From: Shigella phage EP23
Reading direction: 5' to 3' (one strand)
Length of the DNA stretch: 44,077 bases
Sequence record: JN984867
The stretch's first letter is position 1; each line of letters opens with the position of its first letter. Both the position numbers and the translations under genes were made by a program. The notes beneath the pieces are model-generated. The model was not told the DNA's origin. It saw only the letters and a program-made list of their open reading frames with translations, and did no database searches. Shown one piece after another: positions 2,025 through 42,542 of this stretch.

Positions 2025-3545
2025 ATGACCGTTAACGTTGACAACCAGCACCCACTCTATGCGCGCATCGCGCCAGAGTGGAAAATGATTCGCGATTGTG
2101 TAGCAGGGGAGCGCGCCGTGAAGGCGTGCGGACCATTGTATCTGCCACACCCAGCCAGCGGCGACACCACAGACCCGAAATCGCGTGCGCGCTATAAGGC
2201 ATATAAGCAACGCGCTGTCTTCCTGAACGCCACCGCCCGCACACTGAATGCCTTGTTAGGCGTCGCCTTCGCCAAACCGGTGAGTATGGACCTTTCCGGG
2301 GCAATGGCTGACCTGATCGAAGACGTAGACGGCAGCGGGATGCCCCTGGCGCAACTCCTGCGCGGCGCTATGTCGGAAGTGCTGCAATCGGGCCGCGCAG
2401 GCTTTATGGTGGACTATGACCGCCAGGCGCATTTTGACGAACTGGGTAACGTAGTGCCGCAGACAGCCGCTGAAATGGCGGCACACCGCCCGCTTATCCG
2501 CCTGTATACGGCTGAACAGATCATCAACTGGCGGCAGACCCACGGGGTCGACACGCTAATCGTGCTGAAGGAAACGGACGAAATCAGCACCGAAGACCAG
2601 GACGACTTCGCAAACCACGAGGTGACCATCTGGACCGAGCTTCGCATGATTGACGGCAAGGCACACGCCCGCCGCTGGTTTTACAATGCGGACACGTCAG
2701 AAGTGCAAATGGACTTGCCGCGGGGATTCACCCGAACCGACCTTGTTCCACTGGTGGATGCTGACGGTAACGCGCTTACTCAACTGCCATTTTGCTGGTG
2801 TGGTGCTGTGGACAACAACGCGACGCCGGACGCCGCACCGCTGGCGGATATTGCATCCATCAACATTAAGCACTACAACGCCGAAGCAGACGTCGCCGAG
2901 ATTGCGCACATTGTGGGCCAACCTACACTTATTGCGACCGGTCTTACCCAATCATGGGCTGATAAAAACCTGAAGGGTGGCATCGCACTAGGCGCGACTA
3001 AGGGCGTTATCCTGGGCCAGAACATGGACGCTAAACTGCTTCAGGCTGAGGAGAGAAACCTGTCAGTTGCGCTGTGTGAGCGACGCGAATTGCAAATGGC
3101 TAAACTGGGCGCGGCCCTGGTCGAGAAGGGGACCGCACCTAAGACGGCAACTGAAGCGGCCTACGATGCGCAGACTGATAACAGTATCCTGTCACTGATT
3201 GCCGGTAACGTTGAGAAGGCATTCAACCGTGCGCTGCAAATCGTCAAACTGTTCACTGGCGACACCGCAGATCAACGCGTAACGCTGAATAAGTTCTACA
3301 CCGAAATCACGGTTGACGCACAGCTTATGACCGCGATGATGGCTGGTGTGCAGACCGGTACGGTCCGTCTGGCGGACTTTATCAAGTGGATGATGGCCCA
3401 GGGCGTCATTGATGACTCGCAAACCGTTGAGCAGGTGGAAGACGAATTGCGAAATCAGAATCCATTGCCTCAAATGTCCCCGGATGCGGTAGAATCTACC
3501 GAAGAAGACCCGGACAAGGTAGCGGACAATGGCGAAGACAATTAA
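2025..3545 (+). CDS. portal protein
   Basis: 506 aa directly after TerL. Size, acidic C-terminus and synteny are typical of siphovirus portals. Confidence 0.8.
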   Translation: MTVNVDNQHPLYARIAPEWKMIRDCVAGERAVKACGPLYLPHPASGDTTDPKSRARYKAYKQRAVFLNATARTLNALLGVAFAKPVSMDLSGAMADLIEDVDGSGMPLAQLLRGAMSEVLQSGRAGFMVDYDRQAHFDELGNVVPQTAAEMAAHRPLIRLYTAEQIINWRQTHGVDTLIVLKETDEISTEDQDDFANHEVTIWTELRMIDGKAHARRWFYNADTSEVQMDLPRGFTRTDLVPLVDADGNALTQLPFCWCGAVDNNATPDAAPLADIASINIKHYNAEADVAEIAHIVGQPTLIATGLTQSWADKNLKGGIALGATKGVILGQNMDAKLLQAEERNLSVALCERRELQMAKLGAALVEKGTAPKTATEAAYDAQTDNSILSLIAGNVEKAFNRALQIVKLFTGDTADQRVTLNKFYTEITVDAQLMTAMMAGVQTGTVRLADFIKWMMAQGVIDDSQTVEQVEDELRNQNPLPQMSPDAVESTEEDPDKVADNGEDN

Positions 3546-4632
3546 TCAATATATGGCGGATCGAATGATTCGCCGTCACATATTCACCCAGCGCCTGAGC
3601 AATGACCAGGCGCGGAGGGTGCTGGCTATGTGGGAGAAGTTCCGTCCCTCGTTACTTGGTAAGCTGACCGAGTTACTTGATGGCAAAAAATCCATGAATA
3701 ACAAGGCACTATCCACGCTGTTAACGCAACTCGACAAGACAGTTAAAGCAGAATTGCGCACCGAGTTTAAGGCGTTGGCTGAAAGCCTTCAGGAGTTTGC
3801 CGACACGGAGGCCGATTATCTCGCCGACACATTAACGGCAGCGATCCAGCCGGTGGTCGCTGTACCTGCGATCGAGGTGGTTGGCGTAGTGACCGGTGCG
3901 CAGATCGCAGCGACTGCGATGAAAAACCCGTTCCAGGGAAATACCATGATGCAATGGCCCGATTCATTGTCTGAGTGGACCAGGACGCAGATCGGGAATC
4001 AGGTGCGCGCTGGATTCATCCAGGGTAAGCCGACTATGGAAATTATAGCGGACGTGAGGCGCGCGCTCGGCGGTCGTAGTGCGCAAGCTATCTCAAGCGT
4101 TGTTAAGTCCGCAGTCAACCACTATGCGGCGACAGCCCGCGAATTAATGGTAAAAGCTAATGACGATATTCTCGAAGGTCGCCAATGGTTATCTACATTG
4201 GACACGCATACTTCTCCCATGTGCCAGCTACGCGATCGCCTGTTTTATCCGGTTGATGTTACTCCCGACACCAAAGGAAAGCGCGGCGGGAAAATGGTGG
4301 CTGGGTCACAATATGGCGCTGGTCCGGGAAAGTTGCATTATTGTTGCCGGTCGACGGAGACGTGGAAGGTTAAAGGCATGGAAGATTGGCCCAGTGGTAA
4401 GCGTCCGGCACTGAAGGCTGACGCGGGTCGATTGCTGAGTGAGCAGGTCGACGCGCAGACTGATTTCTTCTCATGGGTGCAGCGCCAGCCGCGCCATATC
4501 CTGGAAGAATTATACGGAGTGCAACGCGCCGACCAGATTATGCGCGGCGTGAAAGTGCCGAAGATGTTCACCGATTCAGGCGAACTAATGACTATTGCGC
4601 AGCTTAAAAACCGGGGGTTATGGCGTGATTAA
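3529..4632 (+). CDS. head morphogenesis / minor capsid protein (Mu F / SPP1 gp7-like)
   Basis: 367 aa after the portal gene. Motif QWLSTLDTHTSPMCQLRDRLFY resembles the Mu F family core. Confidence 0.7.
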   Translation: MAKTINQYMADRMIRRHIFTQRLSNDQARRVLAMWEKFRPSLLGKLTELLDGKKSMNNKALSTLLTQLDKTVKAELRTEFKALAESLQEFADTEADYLADTLTAAIQPVVAVPAIEVVGVVTGAQIAATAMKNPFQGNTMMQWPDSLSEWTRTQIGNQVRAGFIQGKPTMEIIADVRRALGGRSAQAISSVVKSAVNHYAATARELMVKANDDILEGRQWLSTLDTHTSPMCQLRDRLFYPVDVTPDTKGKRGGKMVAGSQYGAGPGKLHYCCRSTETWKVKGMEDWPSGKRPALKADAGRLLSEQVDAQTDFFSWVQRQPRHILEELYGVQRADQIMRGVKVPKMFTDSGELMTIAQLKNRGLWRD

Positions 4633-4954
4633 ATATGCAGCGATTGGACTGGGTGTCGGTCTGGCGGTAGGATTCTGGCTAGGTGACTCCTATCGCGCTG
4701 GCGTAGTGGCGGAGGCGGCGCAAGAAGCGCAAGCCCAAGCCCAACGGCAGCAAACTAAAGTTGTTGAGCGCTCCGTGCAGGCCGAACAGGCCCGCGACGT
4801 AGAATACCGGACTATCACGAAAGAGGTTGTTAAATATGTTACGCGCCCTAACCGCCCTGATTGTAGTTTTGATGCTGAGCGCGTGCGGATCAAGCAACGT
4901 GCCGTTGATGCCGCTAACGGAGTCGGCGCTGCGACCGCCGTGCAAGTTCGATAG
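4595..4954 (+). CDS. i-spanin (Rz-like)
   Basis: N-terminal TM helix IKYAAIGLGVGLAVGFWLG, Ala/Gln/Glu-rich coiled coil, C-terminal PDCSFDAERVRIKQRAVDAAN. An out-of-frame lipoprotein ORF overlaps its 3' half. A GTG at 4625 preceded by GGGGG may be the real start. Confidence 0.7.
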   Translation: MRSLKTGGYGVIKYAAIGLGVGLAVGFWLGDSYRAGVVAEAAQEAQAQAQRQQTKVVERSVQAEQARDVEYRTITKEVVKYVTRPNRPDCSFDAERVRIKQRAVDAANGVGAATAVQVR

Positions 4955-5066
4955 CCCGTCCGCAGACCCCGACGAGGATTTGATGATTGACGTGAAAAAT
5001 ATGGAATGCGGGGCGAAGCTGAGGGCGCAGGTCCTGGAGTTGCAGCAAATAATTAAGGGGCCGTAA
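4827..5066 (+). CDS. o-spanin lipoprotein (Rz1-like), overlapped architecture
   Basis: Signal peptide plus lipobox (LIVVLMLSAC|GSS) and a Pro-rich mature part. Starts inside the i-spanin gene in another frame and extends 112 nt beyond it. Alternative start at 4836. Confidence 0.75.
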   Translation: MLNMLRALTALIVVLMLSACGSSNVPLMPLTESALRPPCKFDSPSADPDEDLMIDVKNMECGAKLRAQVLELQQIIKGP

Positions 5067-5077
5067 TGGCCCCTTTT
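5055..5077. terminator. hairpin terminator between convergent genes
   Basis: AAGGGGCC-GTAAT-GGCCCCTT followed by TTTT. The o-spanin stop codon lies in the loop. The convergent minus-strand gene ends at 5080. Confidence 0.6.
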
Positions 5078-5079
5078 CG

Positions 5080-5844
5080 TCAGCGCGGAATACCGCAAAT
5101 CTCGTTGAGAGTTTTCACATCCAGCGCCACCGCCGTGGATTTTGGCTTGTCCGGGTATGGTATGAATTGCTCAACTTCAGGCCATGCCTTAATCAGCTTC
5201 TTGTCAGTATTGTGCAGGTCCAGCACACCGGTAACGGTGAGTTTGAACGCATCATACTTCGCGCGTAACTCGCGACGGGCTTTGTCGTTGCGGTCCAGGC
5301 GTTTACAGAAATCATGATCTGCCGGGTAGTCTACGCGACCGCGTGGAAGATATATCGGCAGCGCTTTCCCGTCCTCGTCCACTTCGCACACTGACGCGAG
5401 CATAACCGTCTCGAACCCCGGAACGATATCGCCGAGATCAGGCGCGAGCATATTCATATATTTCTCTTCCCAGTACCCGCGATGTACGCGGTATTGGCGA
5501 CCGTCACCGCTCAAGGACAAGGTGCGAACATTTCCGCCTGCGTTGATTTCGAAAGTGGCGTCGTAAACGCTGCCGATACCCTTCGGACGGTCGGTGTTAT
5601 AACTATACGTCGCCTTGTTGGTGTATACGCTGACGCCGTACATCTGCGACTGGTCATCGAGGATTAACAGGATATGCTCGCGTAGCGCGGCGAATGTGCG
5701 AATGCCGTCCGGCATACAGTCCAGCGTGATTGCGTACGCCAGATCGCGGGAGTCCATCATGATTGATTTGGCTTCGGTTGCGATTTCGTGGTCGCGCAGG
5801 ATGTTAGCCAGGATCTGATTTTTAATGTCTTTCGTCAGTCTCAT
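5080..5844 (-). CDS. hypothetical protein (254 aa), second gene of the antisense island
   Basis: Long ORF with SD GAGGA 8 nt upstream of its ATG. No motif I can assign. Confidence 0.6.
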   Translation of the reverse strand: MRLTKDIKNQILANILRDHEIATEAKSIMMDSRDLAYAITLDCMPDGIRTFAALREHILLILDDQSQMYGVSVYTNKATYSYNTDRPKGIGSVYDATFEINAGGNVRTLSLSGDGRQYRVHRGYWEEKYMNMLAPDLGDIVPGFETVMLASVCEVDEDGKALPIYLPRGRVDYPADHDFCKRLDRNDKARRELRAKYDAFKLTVTGVLDLHNTDKKLIKAWPEVEQFIPYPDKPKSTAVALDVKTLNEICGIPR

Positions 5845-5925
5845 TTTTGTGTCCTCGTTGTTGGGGCTTTCGCCCCGTTTGGTTTAGTTGAATTTGATGC
5901 CGCCACCAACAGGCCGCTTTGTTCG

Positions 5926-6438
5926 CTACAAACGCATCGGCATGATAACAAGGAAGGCCCCACCTTTGAACGACACACGTGTCGCCTTGTCGACCCCCCG
6001 GAATTCCAGTTTTAAGCTATCAAACTTACGGTCGAACAATTTAGCAATTTTGAAGGCGTCGGATAGGTATGCCCCATTAAACCCGATAGCCTCCACTTTA
6101 GCGCTGGCGAAAGACGAAACTCTACGCCAGTCTGGGAATCGTCCGTCTATGTTCTCTACGGGCAGGGTCCCTATTAATACGTCTTTACTATCAAAGAACG
6201 CTGCGGAGGTGTCGTCAATGTTGCAGTATTCGAATTTAGCAGGTAAGCGGCCTTTAATTGATACTATTTTACTTTCACCTTCGGGAACAACCGCGGACCC
6301 TAAGAACAAACGATGTCCGTCGGAGGCCACAATGAAGCCTTTCTCGTCGAAAAATACACCATTCAGATAGTATCGCACGTCATTAGTTGCGGCGCACATC
6401 ATAGCGGCTTTAAGATCGGCATAGTTAACTTTAATCAT
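5926..6438 (-). CDS. truncated DnaN (beta sliding clamp)-like protein, 170 aa
   Basis: Contains DVRYYLNGVFFD, ASDGHRL, DGRFPDWRRV, IGFNGAYLSDAF and a C-terminal VIMPMRL. These match E. coli DnaN blocks DVRYYLNGMLFE, ATDGHRL, DGRFPDYRRV, IGFNVSYVLDVL and VVMPMRL. Start trimmed from the track value (6492) to the ATG at 6438 (or 6444) behind SD GAGGA. Confidence 0.75.
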   Translation of the reverse strand: MIKVNYADLKAAMMCAATNDVRYYLNGVFFDEKGFIVASDGHRLFLGSAVVPEGESKIVSIKGRLPAKFEYCNIDDTSAAFFDSKDVLIGTLPVENIDGRFPDWRRVSSFASAKVEAIGFNGAYLSDAFKIAKLFDRKFDSLKLEFRGVDKATRVSFKGGAFLVIMPMRL

Positions 6439-6467
6439 TATCATTTCCTCGTTGTTGGTGTGCAACC

Positions 6468-6497
6468 AATATAATGCAACCAACATCTGCAATGCAA
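6468..6497 (-). promoter_or_regulatory. sigma70-like promoter for the antisense island
   Basis: On the minus strand: TTGCAT-18 nt-TATATT. TTGGTTGCA boxes abut both sides of the -10, giving TATATTGGTTGCACACCAAC, which nearly repeats at 39515-39534. Confidence 0.55.
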
Positions 6498-6504
6498 GCG
6501 AATT

Positions 6505-6532
6505 TTGCGATTATTTTTATCGCTGATAATAT
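6505..6532 (+). promoter_or_regulatory. candidate promoter for scaffold/capsid genes
   Basis: TTGCGA-16 nt-TAATAT, divergent from the 6468-6497 promoter. Confidence 0.4.
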
Positions 6533-6586
6533 TAAGGCGTGAAGTCAAGCGGGTGGCCCGCTTTGCCACAATCCCAGGGGGATAGC

Positions 6587-7291
6587 ATGAAACTTACTAA
6601 AGCAGAATATGACGCGTTGCCAGAAGGCATGAAGGCTTTATTTGTTGCCGATGGCGATGGGTATAAATCCACGTTCATGACCGCCGAAGAAGTACAGGCG
6701 GAGATCAAGGGTCTGAAAGACAACAACGCGAAGCTGGTTAGCGAGAAGAAAGCAGAAGCCGAACGTCGCGCCGAAGCCGAGCGCCTTGCGAAAGAGAAAG
6801 AGGAAGCCGCCGCGCGCAAAAATGGTGACCTCGAAGCAATCGACAAATCCTGGAAAGATAAGTTCGCAAAACATGAAGCGGACACATCGGGGAAAATCGA
6901 AGCCTACCGCAAGCAGATCCACGACCTGACCATCGGCAGCGCCGCCAAAGATCTGGCGTCGAAGCTGTTCGGTAAGAACGCCGGAATCATGCAACGTCAC
7001 GTTATGGACCGCCTGACGCTGGAAGACGGCGAAGACGGCAGCTTGAAAGTGCGGGTCTTGCAGGATGGCAAACCGTCCGCGCTGACTATGGAAGAGCTTG
7101 AAAAAGAGTTCCGTAATAACGCCGATTTTGCATCCGTCCTGGCTGGCACGCCAGCAGGCGGCGCTCCTAGCAAACCGACGCAGGTTGTCGAAGATGTGAA
7201 GTCAAAAATCACTATGGGCCACAGCTTCGGTATCACTGACTTAACGAAACAGGCAGGGGATATCATCGCTAAAATGGGCGACGACGAGTAA
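6587..7291 (+). CDS. scaffolding protein
   Basis: 234 aa, strongly helical and charged (AEAERRAEAERLAKEKEEAAARK), immediately upstream of the major capsid gene. Start trimmed to the ATG at 6587 behind GGGGGA. Confidence 0.65.
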   Translation: MKLTKAEYDALPEGMKALFVADGDGYKSTFMTAEEVQAEIKGLKDNNAKLVSEKKAEAERRAEAERLAKEKEEAAARKNGDLEAIDKSWKDKFAKHEADTSGKIEAYRKQIHDLTIGSAAKDLASKLFGKNAGIMQRHVMDRLTLEDGEDGSLKVRVLQDGKPSALTMEELEKEFRNNADFASVLAGTPAGGAPSKPTQVVEDVKSKITMGHSFGITDLTKQAGDIIAKMGDDE

Positions 7292-7388: not shown

Positions 7389-8483
7389 ATGTCTTTAACA
7401 GTGTTCCAGCGTAAACTCGTCACCGCGGTTACGCAAATGATTCCCGATAACCTGAACGTGTTCAACGCTGCCGCTAACGGTGCTGTTGTTCTCGGCACGG
7501 GTGAAGTTCTGAAGGACGTTGTAGAAAAAATGTCCGTAGGCTTGATCGCCAACCTCGTTACCGACCGTAACGCCTACGCCCCTGTCGGTACTCCGGCGAC
7601 CGCAAAAGTGCTGGCGCGTATGCTGACCAACTCGGTTAACCTGTCCGCGAAAGTGGGTCCGGTGGCAATCACTAAGGCCATGATGGCTAAGATCGAAACC
7701 AACGTTAATAGCGTTGCGGCTGAGATTGCGGCACAGGCTACTCAAGCGATTATGCTGCATTACCTCAAAGCGGGTATCGGTGCGGGCAAAGCCGCTATTG
7801 AAAGCAACGCAGCGGCAAACTACACCCAACCTGCGCGCGTTGACGGCGTTGGCGGTCGTACCTTCCCGACCCTGGCAGACTTCCCGCTGGCGGCTTCTAA
7901 GTTCGGCGATCAGGCTGCTTTGATTAAGTCCTGGTTTATGGACGGCGTTACCTGGGCAAACTTCATCGCTTACCAGGCGCTTCCATCTGCCGAGCAGGTA
8001 TTCGCGATCGGCGATCTGCAGGTAATGGGCGATGGCCTGGGCCGCCGTTTCATTATCTCCGATGCCGCTGCCGATGCAATGGGCGCGGGTAAAATGCTGG
8101 GTCTGGTCCCTGGCGCGGTTGCAGTTACCACCAACGGCCTAGATATGCTGGCGCAGGAAAAAGGCGGTAACGAGAACATTGAGCGCTGGTGGCAGGGCGA
8201 GTTCGACTTCAACGTGGCTGTTAAAGGCTATCGTCTGAAGGCGTCCGCTCGTACTCCGGTCGAAGGCGTTCGCTCGTTCAAGCTGTCCGATATCACCGAT
8301 AAGGCCAACTGGGAACTGGACCAGGGCCAGGTAGACAACGCACCGGCAACCGTGCAGGATGTTGGCAGCGATAGCGATACCAAAGGCCGCCGCCGTACGC
8401 AGACAGCGCAGGCAGTGCCTACCCGTAACATCAAGGAAACCGCGGGCGTACTGGTTACGCTGACTGCTACCACCGCGTCGTAA
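7389..8483 (+). CDS. major capsid protein
   Basis: 364 aa, SD AAAGGA. Position after the scaffold gene and a strong terminator downstream. The size fits HK97-fold capsid proteins. Confidence 0.8.
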   Translation: MSLTVFQRKLVTAVTQMIPDNLNVFNAAANGAVVLGTGEVLKDVVEKMSVGLIANLVTDRNAYAPVGTPATAKVLARMLTNSVNLSAKVGPVAITKAMMAKIETNVNSVAAEIAAQATQAIMLHYLKAGIGAGKAAIESNAAANYTQPARVDGVGGRTFPTLADFPLAASKFGDQAALIKSWFMDGVTWANFIAYQALPSAEQVFAIGDLQVMGDGLGRRFIISDAAADAMGAGKMLGLVPGAVAVTTNGLDMLAQEKGGNENIERWWQGEFDFNVAVKGYRLKASARTPVEGVRSFKLSDITDKANWELDQGQVDNAPATVQDVGSDSDTKGRRRTQTAQAVPTRNIKETAGVLVTLTATTAS

Positions 8484-21709: not shown

Positions 21710-21950
21710 AATAATCAATGACGCAGTTTGATGGGGAACCAATCCTGCGGTGTTCGTGGCTAATCTCCTGGCACCACTGACCGGTATATGGTAGCTTTTC
21801 GGTATCGTAAACCAAAGACCCGTCCTCATGTCGCTCAATAGGCTGAGGTATTACACCGGAATTTGGAACGCCTGTGCTTAAGCCGCTGCCACATGCCGTC
21901 ATCAGAAGGCACGCCGCGGGTATTATCAGATTTTTGATTAAAGTTTTCAT
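21708..21950 (-). CDS. small lipoprotein, candidate receptor-blocking superinfection exclusion protein (Llp/Cor-like role)
   Basis: 80 aa. Signal peptide plus lipobox (AACLLMTAC|GSG), SD GGAGA. Antisense gene between the two receptor-binding genes. Start trimmed from 22013 to 21950. Confidence 0.7.
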   Translation of the reverse strand: MKTLIKNLIIPAACLLMTACGSGLSTGVPNSGVIPQPIERHEDGSLVYDTEKLPYTGQWCQEISHEHRRIGSPSNCVIDY

Positions 21951-21980
21951 GTTATCATCTCCTGTATTGGGTTGAGTTTT

Positions 21981-22009
21981 AGTATTACACCGCTCAACCA
22001 AGAATGCAA
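21981..22009 (-). promoter_or_regulatory. candidate promoter for the lipoprotein gene
   Basis: On the minus strand: TTGGTTGCAT (-35 TTGCAT)-17 nt-AATACT, preceded by TGT. Confidence 0.4.
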
Positions 22010-22031
22010 CCAATTTTATGAGGATTTAGCT

Positions 22032-24904: not shown

Positions 24905-24934
24905 ACTATAGTGCAACCAACCTATTGGTTGCAA
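24905..24934 (-). promoter_or_regulatory. sigma70-like promoter overlapping a perfect inverted repeat
   Basis: On the minus strand: TTGCAA-18 nt-TATAGT. The plus strand carries TGCAACCAA-ccta-TTGGTTGCA (24912-24933). Confidence 0.55.
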
Positions 24935-26570: not shown

Positions 26571-26599
26571 AATATAATGCAACCAATATGCTTATGCAA
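26571..26599 (-). promoter_or_regulatory. sigma70-like promoter
   Basis: On the minus strand: TTGGTTGCAT (-35 TTGCAT)-17 nt-TATATT, with a second TTGGTTGCA abutting the -10. Confidence 0.6.
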
Positions 26600-26604
26600 C
26601 CAAT

Positions 26605-36274: not shown

Positions 36275-36303
36275 ATATTAGATTGGTTGCAGAAGGGAGT
36301 CAA
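36275..36303 (-). promoter_or_regulatory. strong sigma70-like early-left promoter
   Basis: On the minus strand: TTGACT-17 nt-TAATAT, with TGCAACCAA in the spacer. About 190-nt leader before the ATG at 36078. Confidence 0.65.
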
Positions 36304-36480: not shown

Positions 36481-36810
36481 ATGAATATCAACGACGCAAT
36501 CGAAATGCTAACGAAGACTGTCTGCAGTGAGACTAGCCGGTCCTGGGCGTATACCGATGCCGTGGGGGCGGTGCTATTTGAAATCGAACGTCTGCGACTT
36601 ACCGAAAAAGAATTGCGCGCGAAGCTGGAATTACTCAACGGTACGGCAGCCAGCAAGCTGCAAAAGCACAATGAAGAAATGGAAGAATACAAAAAACAGG
36701 TTATCCGTTTGCGCGCCGAGGGAAAATCCTGGGCGATGATCGCTGAGTTGACAGGAATTAATCAGAGCACCGTGCGCTCCTGGGTACGCAATAACAAAAC
36801 TTCGAAGTAA
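36481..36810 (+). CDS. HTH DNA-binding protein (109 aa)
   Basis: C-terminal helix-turn-helix KSWAMIAELTGINQSTVRSWVRNN. First gene of the rightward early operon. Confidence 0.6.
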   Translation: MNINDAIEMLTKTVCSETSRSWAYTDAVGAVLFEIERLRLTEKELRAKLELLNGTAASKLQKHNEEMEEYKKQVIRLRAEGKSWAMIAELTGINQSTVRSWVRNNKTSK

Positions 36811-39332: not shown

Positions 39333-39491
39333 CATAAAATCCGGGATTGCAAAATACACGGCAGCACATTGGAAATCGCGGTCGTCGATGAACTGGGCAA
39401 CCAATGCGAGTTGCAGAATGTGGTGTGAAAAATGCAGTTTGCAGTCACAGCTGATAGCGATCAACTTTTTCATGCGCATGATTAATATTGG

Positions 39492-39520
39492 TTGCATTCA
39501 TGCCAGCACCCTGCTAGATT
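39492..39520 (+). promoter_or_regulatory. sigma70-like promoter
   Basis: TTGGTTGCAT (-35 TTGCAT)-17 nt-TAGATT, followed by GGTTGCACACCAAC (the same post -10 sequence as at 6468), then SD GAGGG and the ATG at 39549. Confidence 0.6.
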
Positions 39521-39548
39521 GGTTGCACACCAACATGAGGGCTGAACA

Positions 39549-39884: not shown

Positions 39885-40154
39885 ATGACCCGTAGACGCG
39901 CAAAACAGCTTTCGTGGCATATCCCCCTGCATTGCATACGAATATGGGCTAAGAATGCGAATGCGGGGGACTCTGTGTACTGGTGCTATCGCGACGACGT
40001 TAAGCCGTTGACGCAGACTCGCTACTTGCACCAGTTCGCCGCGCAACATGATTTCTATGTGCGGACCTCCTTGCAACCAATGGGGATCCGTATTACATTA
40101 CGCCGGAAGCCCGCAGTCGAGCGGGTAGGCAAACACTGGAGACTGAGCAAATGA
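39885..40154 (+). CDS. hypothetical protein (89 aa)
   Basis: ORF 9 nt after the upstream stop. Basic. Confidence 0.5.
   Translation: MTRRRAKQLSWHIPLHCIRIWAKNANAGDSVYWCYRDDVKPLTQTRYLHQFAAQHDFYVRTSLQPMGIRITLRRKPAVERVGKHWRLSK
40071..40099 (+). promoter_or_regulatory. candidate internal promoter
   Basis: TTGCAA-17 nt-TACATT overlapping an exact TGCAACCAA (40072-40080), inside the 39885-40154 ORF. Confidence 0.3.
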
Positions 40155-42453: not shown

Positions 42454-42479
42454 AAGCCCGGAATTAACCGGGCTTTTTA
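42454..42479 (+). terminator. intrinsic terminator
   Basis: AGCCCGG-AATTAA-CCGGGCT followed by TTTTT. Confidence 0.85.
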
Positions 42480-42483
42480 TTGC

Positions 42484-42513
42484 TTGACTTGCAACCAACA
42501 TAGACTCTATACT
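42484..42513 (+). promoter_or_regulatory. sigma70-like promoter
   Basis: TTGACT-18 nt-TATACT. TGCAACCAA lies right after the -35 and TGCGACCAA right after the -10. Confidence 0.6.
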
Positions 42514-42542
42514 GCGACCAATCAACGAGAGGAGTAATCAAG

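Follow-up and report, generated by a model that had tools for sequence, protein, structure and literature searches.

Positions 5,080 to 6,497 of the genome of Shigella phage EP23 (sequence record JN984867; 44,077 nucleotides, analysed at full length and called the window here) hold a minus-strand two-gene unit, the island, which lies between the spanin gene Rz1 and the scaffold gene. The genome is that of a Dhillonvirus, an HK578-like lytic siphophage of Escherichia coli, and the 2.9 kb around the island matched 157 phage records at 80-99% identity, nearly all of them from Escherichia Dhillonvirus. The first gene of the island encodes a truncated relative of the bacterial beta sliding clamp (the mini clamp), the second a protein of 254 amino acids. 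Together, our data make it rather likely that the island is an accessory-gene slot of the Dhillonviruses, a self-contained minus-strand unit with swappable cargo that is probably expressed early and whose two products act separately. The original prediction for this DNA had listed a promoter, a clamp-like gene, a hairpin, a 254-amino-acid open reading frame (ORF) and a terminator, and all of them are present in the sequence; its description of the 254-amino-acid protein as one of unknown function has to be corrected, since the protein belongs to a named family, Pfam Nmad5 (PF18757).

This reading is supported by the varied content of the locus. We compared the window with 19 loci of relatives, taken from GenBank, IMG/VR and read-archive assemblies, some genomes having been fetched twice. 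In each of them, promoter and terminator are present, and Rz1 and the scaffold gene are separated by one or more minus-strand genes; at least nine distinct arrangements occur. The promoter is followed by the clamp gene and nmad5 in the window and L048; by the p109 gene and nmad5 in YD-2008.s and others; by nmad5 alone in L049, L054, L055 and L062; by p135 and nmad5 in L057 and L061; by p53 and nmad5 in L053; by p109, nmad5, a terminator, the clamp gene and another terminator in CHD5UKE2; by the clamp gene alone in Sodalis phage SO-1 (L050), L047 and L052; by p109 and the clamp gene in L059; and by p135, with nmad5 deleted, in L051 (IMGVR_UViG_2595698459_000001, 3860-4510). The clamp gene is thus carried by seven of the 19 relatives' loci in addition to the window, Nmad5 is absent from five loci, and three other cassettes (p109, p135 and p53) alternate in the slot. 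In L051, nmad5 has been deleted exactly between two 9-bp copies of CTGACGAAA, leaving ATGAGACTGACGAAAAGGGG fused to the terminator, while in L059 the final nmad5 codons persist behind the 3' untranslated region of the clamp gene; nmad5 was therefore lost at least twice, by independent events. The clamp gene is 86-95% identical across several arrangements. Nmad5 proteins are 66-97% identical, compared with 92-100% for the scaffold and 89-99% for the portal proteins of the same genomes, which speaks for faster evolution of Nmad5.

Overall, the earlier interpretation of the unit is partly supported. The term moron-like cargo was largely right, in that conserved promoter and terminator motifs belong to the unit and its content differs between relatives that are otherwise syntenic, but the locus itself is fixed. 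Universal conservation had been named as an observation that would speak against cargo: the locus is present in all loci examined, but what it contains is not constant. The GenBank record of phage CHD5UKE2 already annotates the clamp gene as a 'possible moron'. Database searches say little about the cassettes, since p109, p135 and p53 had no informative family match, NCBIfam returned nothing useful for the four cassette proteins, and the PADLOC defence models did not match Nmad5, the clamp, p109 or p135. Two published Dhillonvirus factors, anti-Tmn (ORF35) and Ksap1, were considered as island genes and set aside, as the descriptions in their papers place them elsewhere.

The borders between the cassettes are short and common to the relatives. 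At the first joint, the promoter is followed by ...TATATTGGTTGCACACCAAC, which leads directly into AACGAGGA and the next gene, whatever that gene is. At the second, p109, p135 and the clamp gene of the window all end in AACTAAACCAAAC-GGGGCGAAAGCCCC, followed by (A/T)A(C/A)AA(C/T)GAGGA and the next gene; the GGGGCGAAAGCCCC hairpin is invariant behind these three unrelated cassettes and represents the conserved 3' joint of cassettes in the first position of the slot. At the third, the terminator hairpin closes the unit, and in CHD5UKE2 a copy of it stands on either side of the clamp gene. The two island genes had been said to use the same ribosome-binding context, and indeed AACAACGAGGA occurs exactly twice in the window, both times inside the island. 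In relatives, a joint of the AACAACGAGGA type follows the promoter or the hairpin regardless of the next gene, and the 11-mer reads as a portable joint with a ribosome-binding site, not as a sign of co-regulation specific to the clamp gene and nmad5.

A remnant of p109 behind the clamp stop codon indicates that the clamp gene overwrote p109 in the lineage of the window and was acquired secondarily, so that, judged from the sequence, it appears to be a recent arrival. We propose that recombination at the three joints (the promoter with CACCAAC-AACGAGGA, AACTAAACCAAAC-GGGGCGAAAGCCCC with AACAACGAGGA, and the terminator hairpin) reshuffles the genes, which would leave different phages with different sets of unrelated small genes, and that in the lineage of the window the mini-clamp gene would in this way have replaced the older 109-amino-acid gene ahead of nmad5. 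The GGGGCGAAAGCCCC hairpin lies in the 81-nt spacer between the clamp gene and nmad5. On the minus strand it lacks a following U-tract and is therefore no terminator of the island transcript; a terminator scan finds it terminator-like on the plus strand, and it may serve to stabilise RNA or to stop read-through on the plus strand. The intercistronic RNA as a whole folds no better than shuffled sequence (z -0.2), with only this 14-nt hairpin standing out, and Rfam has no RNA family in 4800-6800.

The promoter was found where it had been predicted, with recognisable -35 and -10 elements, and it is kept wherever the upstream sequence of a relative was read. It scores 8 of 12 against the consensus, just under the threshold of the promoter scan. 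Its predicted kinship with a second site was also borne out: the 20-mer TATATTGGTTGCACACCAAC (6454-6473, minus strand) recurs with a single mismatch (19/20, TAGATT...) at 39515-39534 on the plus strand, where chance would give zero copies. The 108-amino-acid gene behind this twin promoter (39549) has no similarity to the 109-amino-acid slot gene p109. A shorter element of the promoter, TTGGTTGCA, occurs 12 times in the window (0.45 expected) and 10 times at orthologous sites in YD-2008.s (0.46 expected), mostly in intergenic, promoter-like settings and often in pairs. The members of this class are laid out as TTGG-TTGCAT (-35), a spacer of about 17 nt and TA(T/G)ATT (-10), sometimes followed by GGTTGCA(CACCAAC). 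Mapped on the annotation of YD-2008.s, they lie upstream of cor, EpYD_08, EpYD_13, EpYD_52, and a helix-turn-helix (HTH) gene with a primase-helicase gene. By function, they precede this Sigma70_r4-like HTH gene and the primase-helicase gene, a ligase/Dam methyltransferase operon, two operons composed of small unknown genes, the cor exclusion gene (antisense, in the tail block), and the island.

The TTGGTTGCA sites look like a phage-wide class of early promoters or operators. A candidate for the protein that binds them is the phage's own 109-amino-acid Sigma70_r4/HTH protein (36481-36807), which has a site upstream of its gene. Because the island shares its promoter type with replication and host-interaction genes and not with the adjoining head genes, we infer that it is expressed autonomously and early, and most likely independently of the surrounding late genes; transcription would probably be carried out by host RNA polymerase from the TTGGTTGCA-box promoter. 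Several further members of the class deserve mention. At 24912-24933, one TTGGTTGCA pair forms a perfect inverted repeat, TGCAACCAA-tagg-TTGGTTGCA. At about 21900-22013 on the minus strand, a cor-like superinfection-exclusion gene within the tail genes has a TTGGTTGCA-type promoter, TTGGTTGCAT-16 nt-TAATAC. This gene qualifies the earlier statement that the island interrupts a uniformly plus-strand late region: the island is antisense, as stated, but the region is not uniform, since the cor-like gene at about 21.9 kb is antisense as well. At 42464-42530 on the minus strand, the promoter-like element TTGGTCGCA-gTATAGA-N7-TTGGTTGCA stands about 20 nt ahead of a strong terminator hairpin, AAAAAGCCCGGTTAATTCCGGGCTT, and no ORF lies between the two; it could produce a very short transcript, or be the mere reverse side of a plus-strand terminator.

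The coordinates of the island and its surroundings are collected in Table 1. The start codon chosen for the clamp gene gives the protein the same length as its closest homologues (P0001-P0007). The terminator behind nmad5 has a T-rich tail on the minus strand and is followed by TTTT on the plus strand, and as the stop codon of Rz1 lies within its hairpin, it plausibly serves both strands. Because the island terminator would block read-through from the portal/spanin operon, late transcription would have to restart in the spacer that separates the island promoter from the scaffold gene (6498-6583). On the plus strand, this spacer contains a possible divergent promoter, TTGCGA-16 nt-TAATAT, and a GCGGGTGGCCCGC hairpin in the leader of the scaffold gene.

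Table 1. Coordinates of the island, its joints, its neighbours and the TTGGTTGCA sites in the window
Feature	Position	Strand	Remarks
Portal gene	2025-3545	+	
Mu-F-like head morphogenesis gene	3529-4632	+	
Nested spanin genes Rz/Rz1	4595-5066	+	Rz1 stop codon 5064-5066
G+C-rich hairpin terminator	5055-5075	both plausible	between convergent Rz1 and nmad5; 8 pairs, 6 of them G-C
CTGACGAAA, 3' copy of 9-bp direct repeat	5075-5083	-	overlaps nmad5 stop codon
nmad5 (254 amino acids)	5080-5844	-	Pfam PF18757; carries K216
CTGACGAAA, 5' copy of 9-bp direct repeat bracketing nmad5	5830-5838	-	sequence reading
AACAACGAGGA, joint and ribosome-binding module before nmad5	5852-5862	-	conserved with point changes in relatives
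GGGGCGAAAGCCCC, GGGGC-GAAA-GCCCC tetraloop hairpin	5863-5876	-	formed in minimum-free-energy and centroid folds
p109 gene 3'-end remnant, 30 nt (...GGIKFN*)	5884-5913	-	alignment with YD-2008.s, CHD5UKE2 and L059
Clamp-like gene (170 amino acids)	5926-6438	-	likely ATG 6438, stop at 5926; GAGGA precedes start
AACAACGAGGA, joint and ribosome-binding module before clamp-like gene	6446-6456	-	exact repeat of 5852-5862
Two TTGGTTGCA boxes in island promoter	6475-6483 and 6461-6469	-	
Island promoter	6468-6497	-	-35 TTGCAT (6492-6497), 18-nt spacer, -10 TATATT (6468-6473)
Scaffold protein gene	about 6584-7291	+	
Major capsid protein gene	7389-8483	+	
TTGGTTGCA sites	6461-6483, 22005-22013, 24912-24933, 26578-26603, 36283-36291, 39488-39527, 40072-40080, 42490-42498		

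The 254-amino-acid protein matches the Nmad5 family ('nucleotide modification associated domain 5') over its full profile, with an E-value of 2.2e-58 and 198.2 bits against a cut-off of 27 over profile positions 1-206 of 206; in the PHROG collection it falls into phrog_1965 (E 8.5e-62). The family, with 862 representatives at E < 1e-3, has as its motifs an N-terminal (M)RL(T/N), TxxKLxxxWP, and a C-terminal LN..CG.P, and all are present in the protein of the window. Among 52 diverse members, conservation reaches 90% or more at each of R2, T213, L217, W221, P222, L246, N247, G251 and P253. The near-invariant positions (R2, G104, G113, T213, L217, W221, P222, P229, L246, N247, G251 and P253) are nearly all glycine, proline or hydrophobic, with only R2, T213 and N247 polar, and therefore do not look catalytic. 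An AlphaFold2 model (predicted local distance difference test score, pLDDT, 89) led to the detection of neither an enzyme fold nor any known fold.

What is known of the protein experimentally comes from phages that escape the Tmn defence: SMA8 escapes by the nmad5 mutation K216E and SMS22 by the equivalent K296E (Yamashita et al., 2025, PMC11846954). Reverting the escape mutation brings Tmn sensitivity back, nmad5 could not be cloned owing to its toxicity, and a phage from which nmad5 is deleted is viable and still Tmn-sensitive (PMC11846954). K216 is present in the protein of the window, in the context NTDKK216LIKAWPEV, and is the consensus residue of the family (36/52) within TxxKLxxxWP. Elsewhere, Nmad5 keeps company with genes of DNA metabolism. 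In six viral contigs of about 40 kb (L018-L023) and in L070, which share the Dhillonvirus replication module, its gene is part of an early replication operon, just upstream of the genes for a DUF2800 exonuclease, SSB and PolA; in temperate phages, it is flanked by the repressor or N gene on one side and by the Erf/RecT recombination genes on the other. We conclude from this that Nmad5 is a dispensable, probably early and probably non-enzymatic protein with a tie to DNA replication or recombination, or to host interaction. Nmad5 probably binds a partner, and the conserved surface around TxxK(216)LxxxWP would be the one whose mutation permits escape from Tmn. The link between Nmad5 and Tmn is real.

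The name of the family suggests a different function, in which Nmad5 would be a DNA base-modification enzyme and the island a modification module that protects the phage genome. The name derives from M6-like Pseudomonas phages, in which Nmad5 adjoins a thymidine hypermodification cassette (PMC9476957), and the Tmn study likewise calls Nmad5 a modification enzyme (PMC11846954). However, genes for a hydroxymethylase, a nucleotide kinase, aGPT-Pplase, radical S-adenosylmethionine (SAM) or pyridoxal-phosphate (PLP) enzymes and glycosyltransferases are missing from the non-structural half of the window. A Pfam scan of the 29 proteins encoded at 21.8-44 kb found none of the M6/YuA-type partner enzymes (hydroxymethylase, 5-hydroxymethyldeoxyuridine kinase, aGPT-Pplase, radical-SAM and PLP enzymes), but only Dam, PolA, DUF2800, SSB, helicases, phosphatases and HTH proteins, in agreement with the annotation of YD-2008.s. 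Modification genes were not seen around homologues in lambdoid pL and other early operons either, the Dhillonviruses are reported to be comparatively sensitive to restriction-modification systems (PMC8594841), and both the lack of a detectable enzyme fold and the nature of the near-invariant residues speak against catalysis. We therefore regard a modification function as unlikely.

The original prediction had further suggested that the 254-amino-acid protein works with the clamp fragment, and the two could in principle form one system of two components, such as a module that tracks along DNA and delivers a modifying or repair activity. The genes adjoin and are presumably co-transcribed in the window and in L048, the clamp gene lies on the other side of nmad5 in phages of the CHD5UKE2 type and has thus come to lie next to nmad5 in two different ways, and both families occur near replication genes elsewhere. 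The suggestion nevertheless fits poorly with their distribution, since in the Dhillonvirus loci examined either gene is found in the absence of its neighbour, both orders occur, and the two replace one another behind p109; from their separate occurrence and variable order we conclude that they are not obligate partners. The clamp gene stands without nmad5 in L047, L050 (SO-1), L052 and L059, many loci have Nmad5 and no clamp gene, and about 148 records of the phage database contain a close nmad5 (60% identity or more), compared with only 14 that carry a close clamp gene (80% or more). Outside the genus, the flanks examined of clamp genes from Kagunavirus, a Salmonella phage, lambdoid phages and others contain no Nmad5, and in loci L018-L046, which are not from Dhillonvirus, no homologue of the clamp turned up within 5 kb of Nmad5. 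A clamp-binding motif (QL[SD]LF-like) was not seen in Nmad5 when its sequence was read by eye only; the segment Q10-I-L-A-N-I-L, considered as a candidate, lies within a predicted helix and does not fit, and the conserved C-terminal tail has no Q. A joint system is thus improbable, a little more so than a modification function.

The island is flanked by head-morphogenesis and spanin genes and, at its other end, by scaffold and capsid genes, and an antisense clamp gene is similarly placed in Kagunavirus head blocks, which might suggest head-assembly or structural factors. This reading can be dismissed almost entirely, as the genes lie on the opposite strand behind a promoter of the replication-gene class, vary among phages with nearly identical capsid genes and match no structural family with either protein, and as nmad5 deletion mutants are viable. 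The original prediction had allowed for a structural 254-amino-acid protein; what was found is a member of the Nmad5 family that is dispensable for plaque formation and linked to Tmn (PMC11846954).

The mini clamp belongs to phrog_3007 (E 3e-55) and is a clamp only in part. It is not a three-domain DnaN protein, scoring 23.5 bits against the 137.65 of TIGR00663, and its sole Pfam match, to DNA_pol3_beta_2 (PF02767), is weak (20.3 bits, cut-off 27). A profile of 59 family members aligns to residues 137-289 of E. coli beta (E 4e-32), and its C-terminal part to 313-366, which makes the protein a combination of clamp domain II with the C-terminal half of domain III; domain I is missing, and the alignment skips about residues 250-312. 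In the E. coli structure, domain I and about residues 250-312 supply the two faces of the dimer interface that closes the ring. With both ring-closing faces absent, a dimer that encircles DNA is not expected, and a role as DNA-encircling processivity factor is unlikely. AlphaFold2, given the 59-sequence alignment, predicts a compact protein (pLDDT 94; predicted template modelling score, pTM, 0.90) made of three beta-alpha-beta-beta-beta-type units, that is, one and a half clamp domains, and Foldseek with this model returned bacterial beta clamps only.

What the protein has kept is the cleft. In the beta clamp, residues 152-157, 172-177, 238-247, 318-323 and 360-366 form the hydrophobic cleft for clamp-binding motifs, which receives those of the alpha and delta subunits of DNA polymerase III (Pol III), Hda, Pol II, IV and V, and MutS/L. 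By pairwise alignment, the corresponding segments of the mini clamp are RYYLNG (152-157), SDGHRL (172-177), DGRFPDWRRV (238-247), GFNGAY (318-323) and VIMPMRL (360-366). All cleft equivalents are present (R152, Y154, L155, T172, G174, H175, L177, P242, V247, N320, Y323, V360, M362 and P363), and their mean conservation among the 59 family members is 0.82, compared with 0.43 elsewhere in the protein. The family comprises more than 100 clusters at 90% identity, mostly of 170-225 amino acids, and matches 285 phage records. Its genes are found at various early or accessory sites, which include positions next to Dam and primase genes. That the ORF is a decaying, functionless fragment of a captured dnaN, as its half-clamp size and its scores below the Pfam and TIGRFAM cut-offs could suggest, is therefore hardly credible, given a family of this extent, the compact predicted fold, strong and position-specific conservation, and a gene kept at high identity in several arrangements.

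Retention of the cleft without the ring-closing parts makes a soluble binding module the likeliest role. Our tentative proposal, for which we would claim somewhat less than an even chance, is that the mini clamp would bind proteins with clamp-binding motifs as a decoy or adaptor, titrating or recruiting host replication and repair factors. A wider version is more doubtful still: a free-standing copy of the cleft, widespread in siphophages (Dhillonvirus, Kagunavirus, many Salmonella and Klebsiella phages, and lambdoid phages), might early in infection capture Pol III alpha and delta, Hda, MutS/L and translesion polymerases, with the island acting as an exchanger of takeover and immune-evasion cassettes through portable ribosome-binding joints. 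If this were true, the mini clamp would switch off host replication and repair or divert them. We found no paper on truncated phage clamps or on the mini-clamp family in the literature.

Homologues of the mini clamp are found in several settings. In the lambdoid contigs L003 and L004, a mini clamp of 178 amino acids (6001-6537) lies exactly between cII and the replication gene O, a site at which a mimic of the clamp cleft could act on the recruitment of host Pol III. In the Kagunavirus phages fFiEco02 (L067) and XY2 (L068) and in Salmonella phage SaI_NFG_5577 (L069), mini clamps with 40-44% identity are encoded antisense in the head block, between an Ig-like or Hoc-like head protein gene and the spanin genes. 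An antisense clamp gene beside the spanins is a recurring layout across siphophage groups. The label of phrog_3007, 'RusA-like Holliday junction resolvase', was rejected for the protein of the window, since Pfam gave no RusA match and the structure search returned beta clamps only; apparently an error, it has been copied into many recent GenBank phage annotations.

Several points weigh against the reading of the island as a slot with separately acting products, and against the function proposed for the mini clamp. Only eight of 12 positions of the island promoter fit the sigma-70 consensus, and early timing is deduced from shared motifs. The clamp gene has been placed beside nmad5 by at least two rearrangements within the genus, which could hint at a functional link and not merely at a permissive site. 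Deletion of nmad5 leaves Tmn sensitivity intact, so that the link between Nmad5 and Tmn is indirect. The cleft residues are also the most conserved ones in all bacterial clamps, some of them for structural reasons, and their retention does not prove peptide binding. Finally, with three half-domains per chain, a ring of four chains could form in principle. We nevertheless consider an accessory slot whose two products probably act separately the best account of the island.

The phenomenon as such is of a well-known kind, accessory-gene hotspots and morons having been described before, and nmad5 is already published in this genus. New are the structure of the joints, the class of TTGGTTGCA promoters, and the view that the mini clamp is a clamp fragment reduced to the cleft. 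Slots of this type are where phages keep genes for host takeover and for dealing with bacterial immunity, and nmad5, whose K216E mutation defeats the Tmn defence, is naturally lost and reshuffled in this one. Engineering of Dhillonviruses for therapy is under way, and the joints, with the cargo that occurs naturally, show safe sites for foreign genes. Our analysis also flags labels that mislead: Nmad5 of this genus goes under 'nucleotide modification', and the mini clamp under 'RusA-like resolvase' or 'DNA polymerase III beta subunit'. It further offers a concrete, testable hypothesis on a widespread and unstudied family of phage proteins in which nothing but the interaction cleft of the bacterial sliding clamp is copied.

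Comparison with known systems places the two proteins and the locus as follows. The nmad5 of the window is the same gene as in SMA8 and SMS22, at the same locus (there described as 'near the capsid gene') and with K216 conserved (PMC11846954); it is in the same length class as that of SMA8, but in the window the clamp gene precedes it. The mini clamp is homologous to domain II and the C-terminal half of domain III of E. coli DnaN (PDB 1MMI, 2POL) and retains the cleft motifs RYYLNG, (T/S)DGHRL, DGRFPD(Y/W)RRV and MPMRL, but has 170 residues where DnaN has 366. Interference with the clamp as an interaction hub is a theme that it would share with staphylococcal phage clamp inhibitors, which target the host clamp. 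It would share it as well with MuC of phage Mu, which carries a clamp-binding motif (PMC12867686); unlike all of these, which bind the host clamp, the mini clamp would imitate its cleft. The island itself resembles Hendrix-type morons (lambdoid lom/bor and cor) in being, as far as its sequence tells, an autonomous promoter-gene-terminator unit between conserved late genes, in its differing presence and content among close relatives, and in the duplicated terminators that flank the clamp gene in CHD5UKE2. It differs from them in belonging to a lytic phage, to which prophage expression does not apply, in being a locus that is fixed in the genus while only its cargo changes, and in exchanging this cargo via short common joints that include a portable ribosome-binding module.

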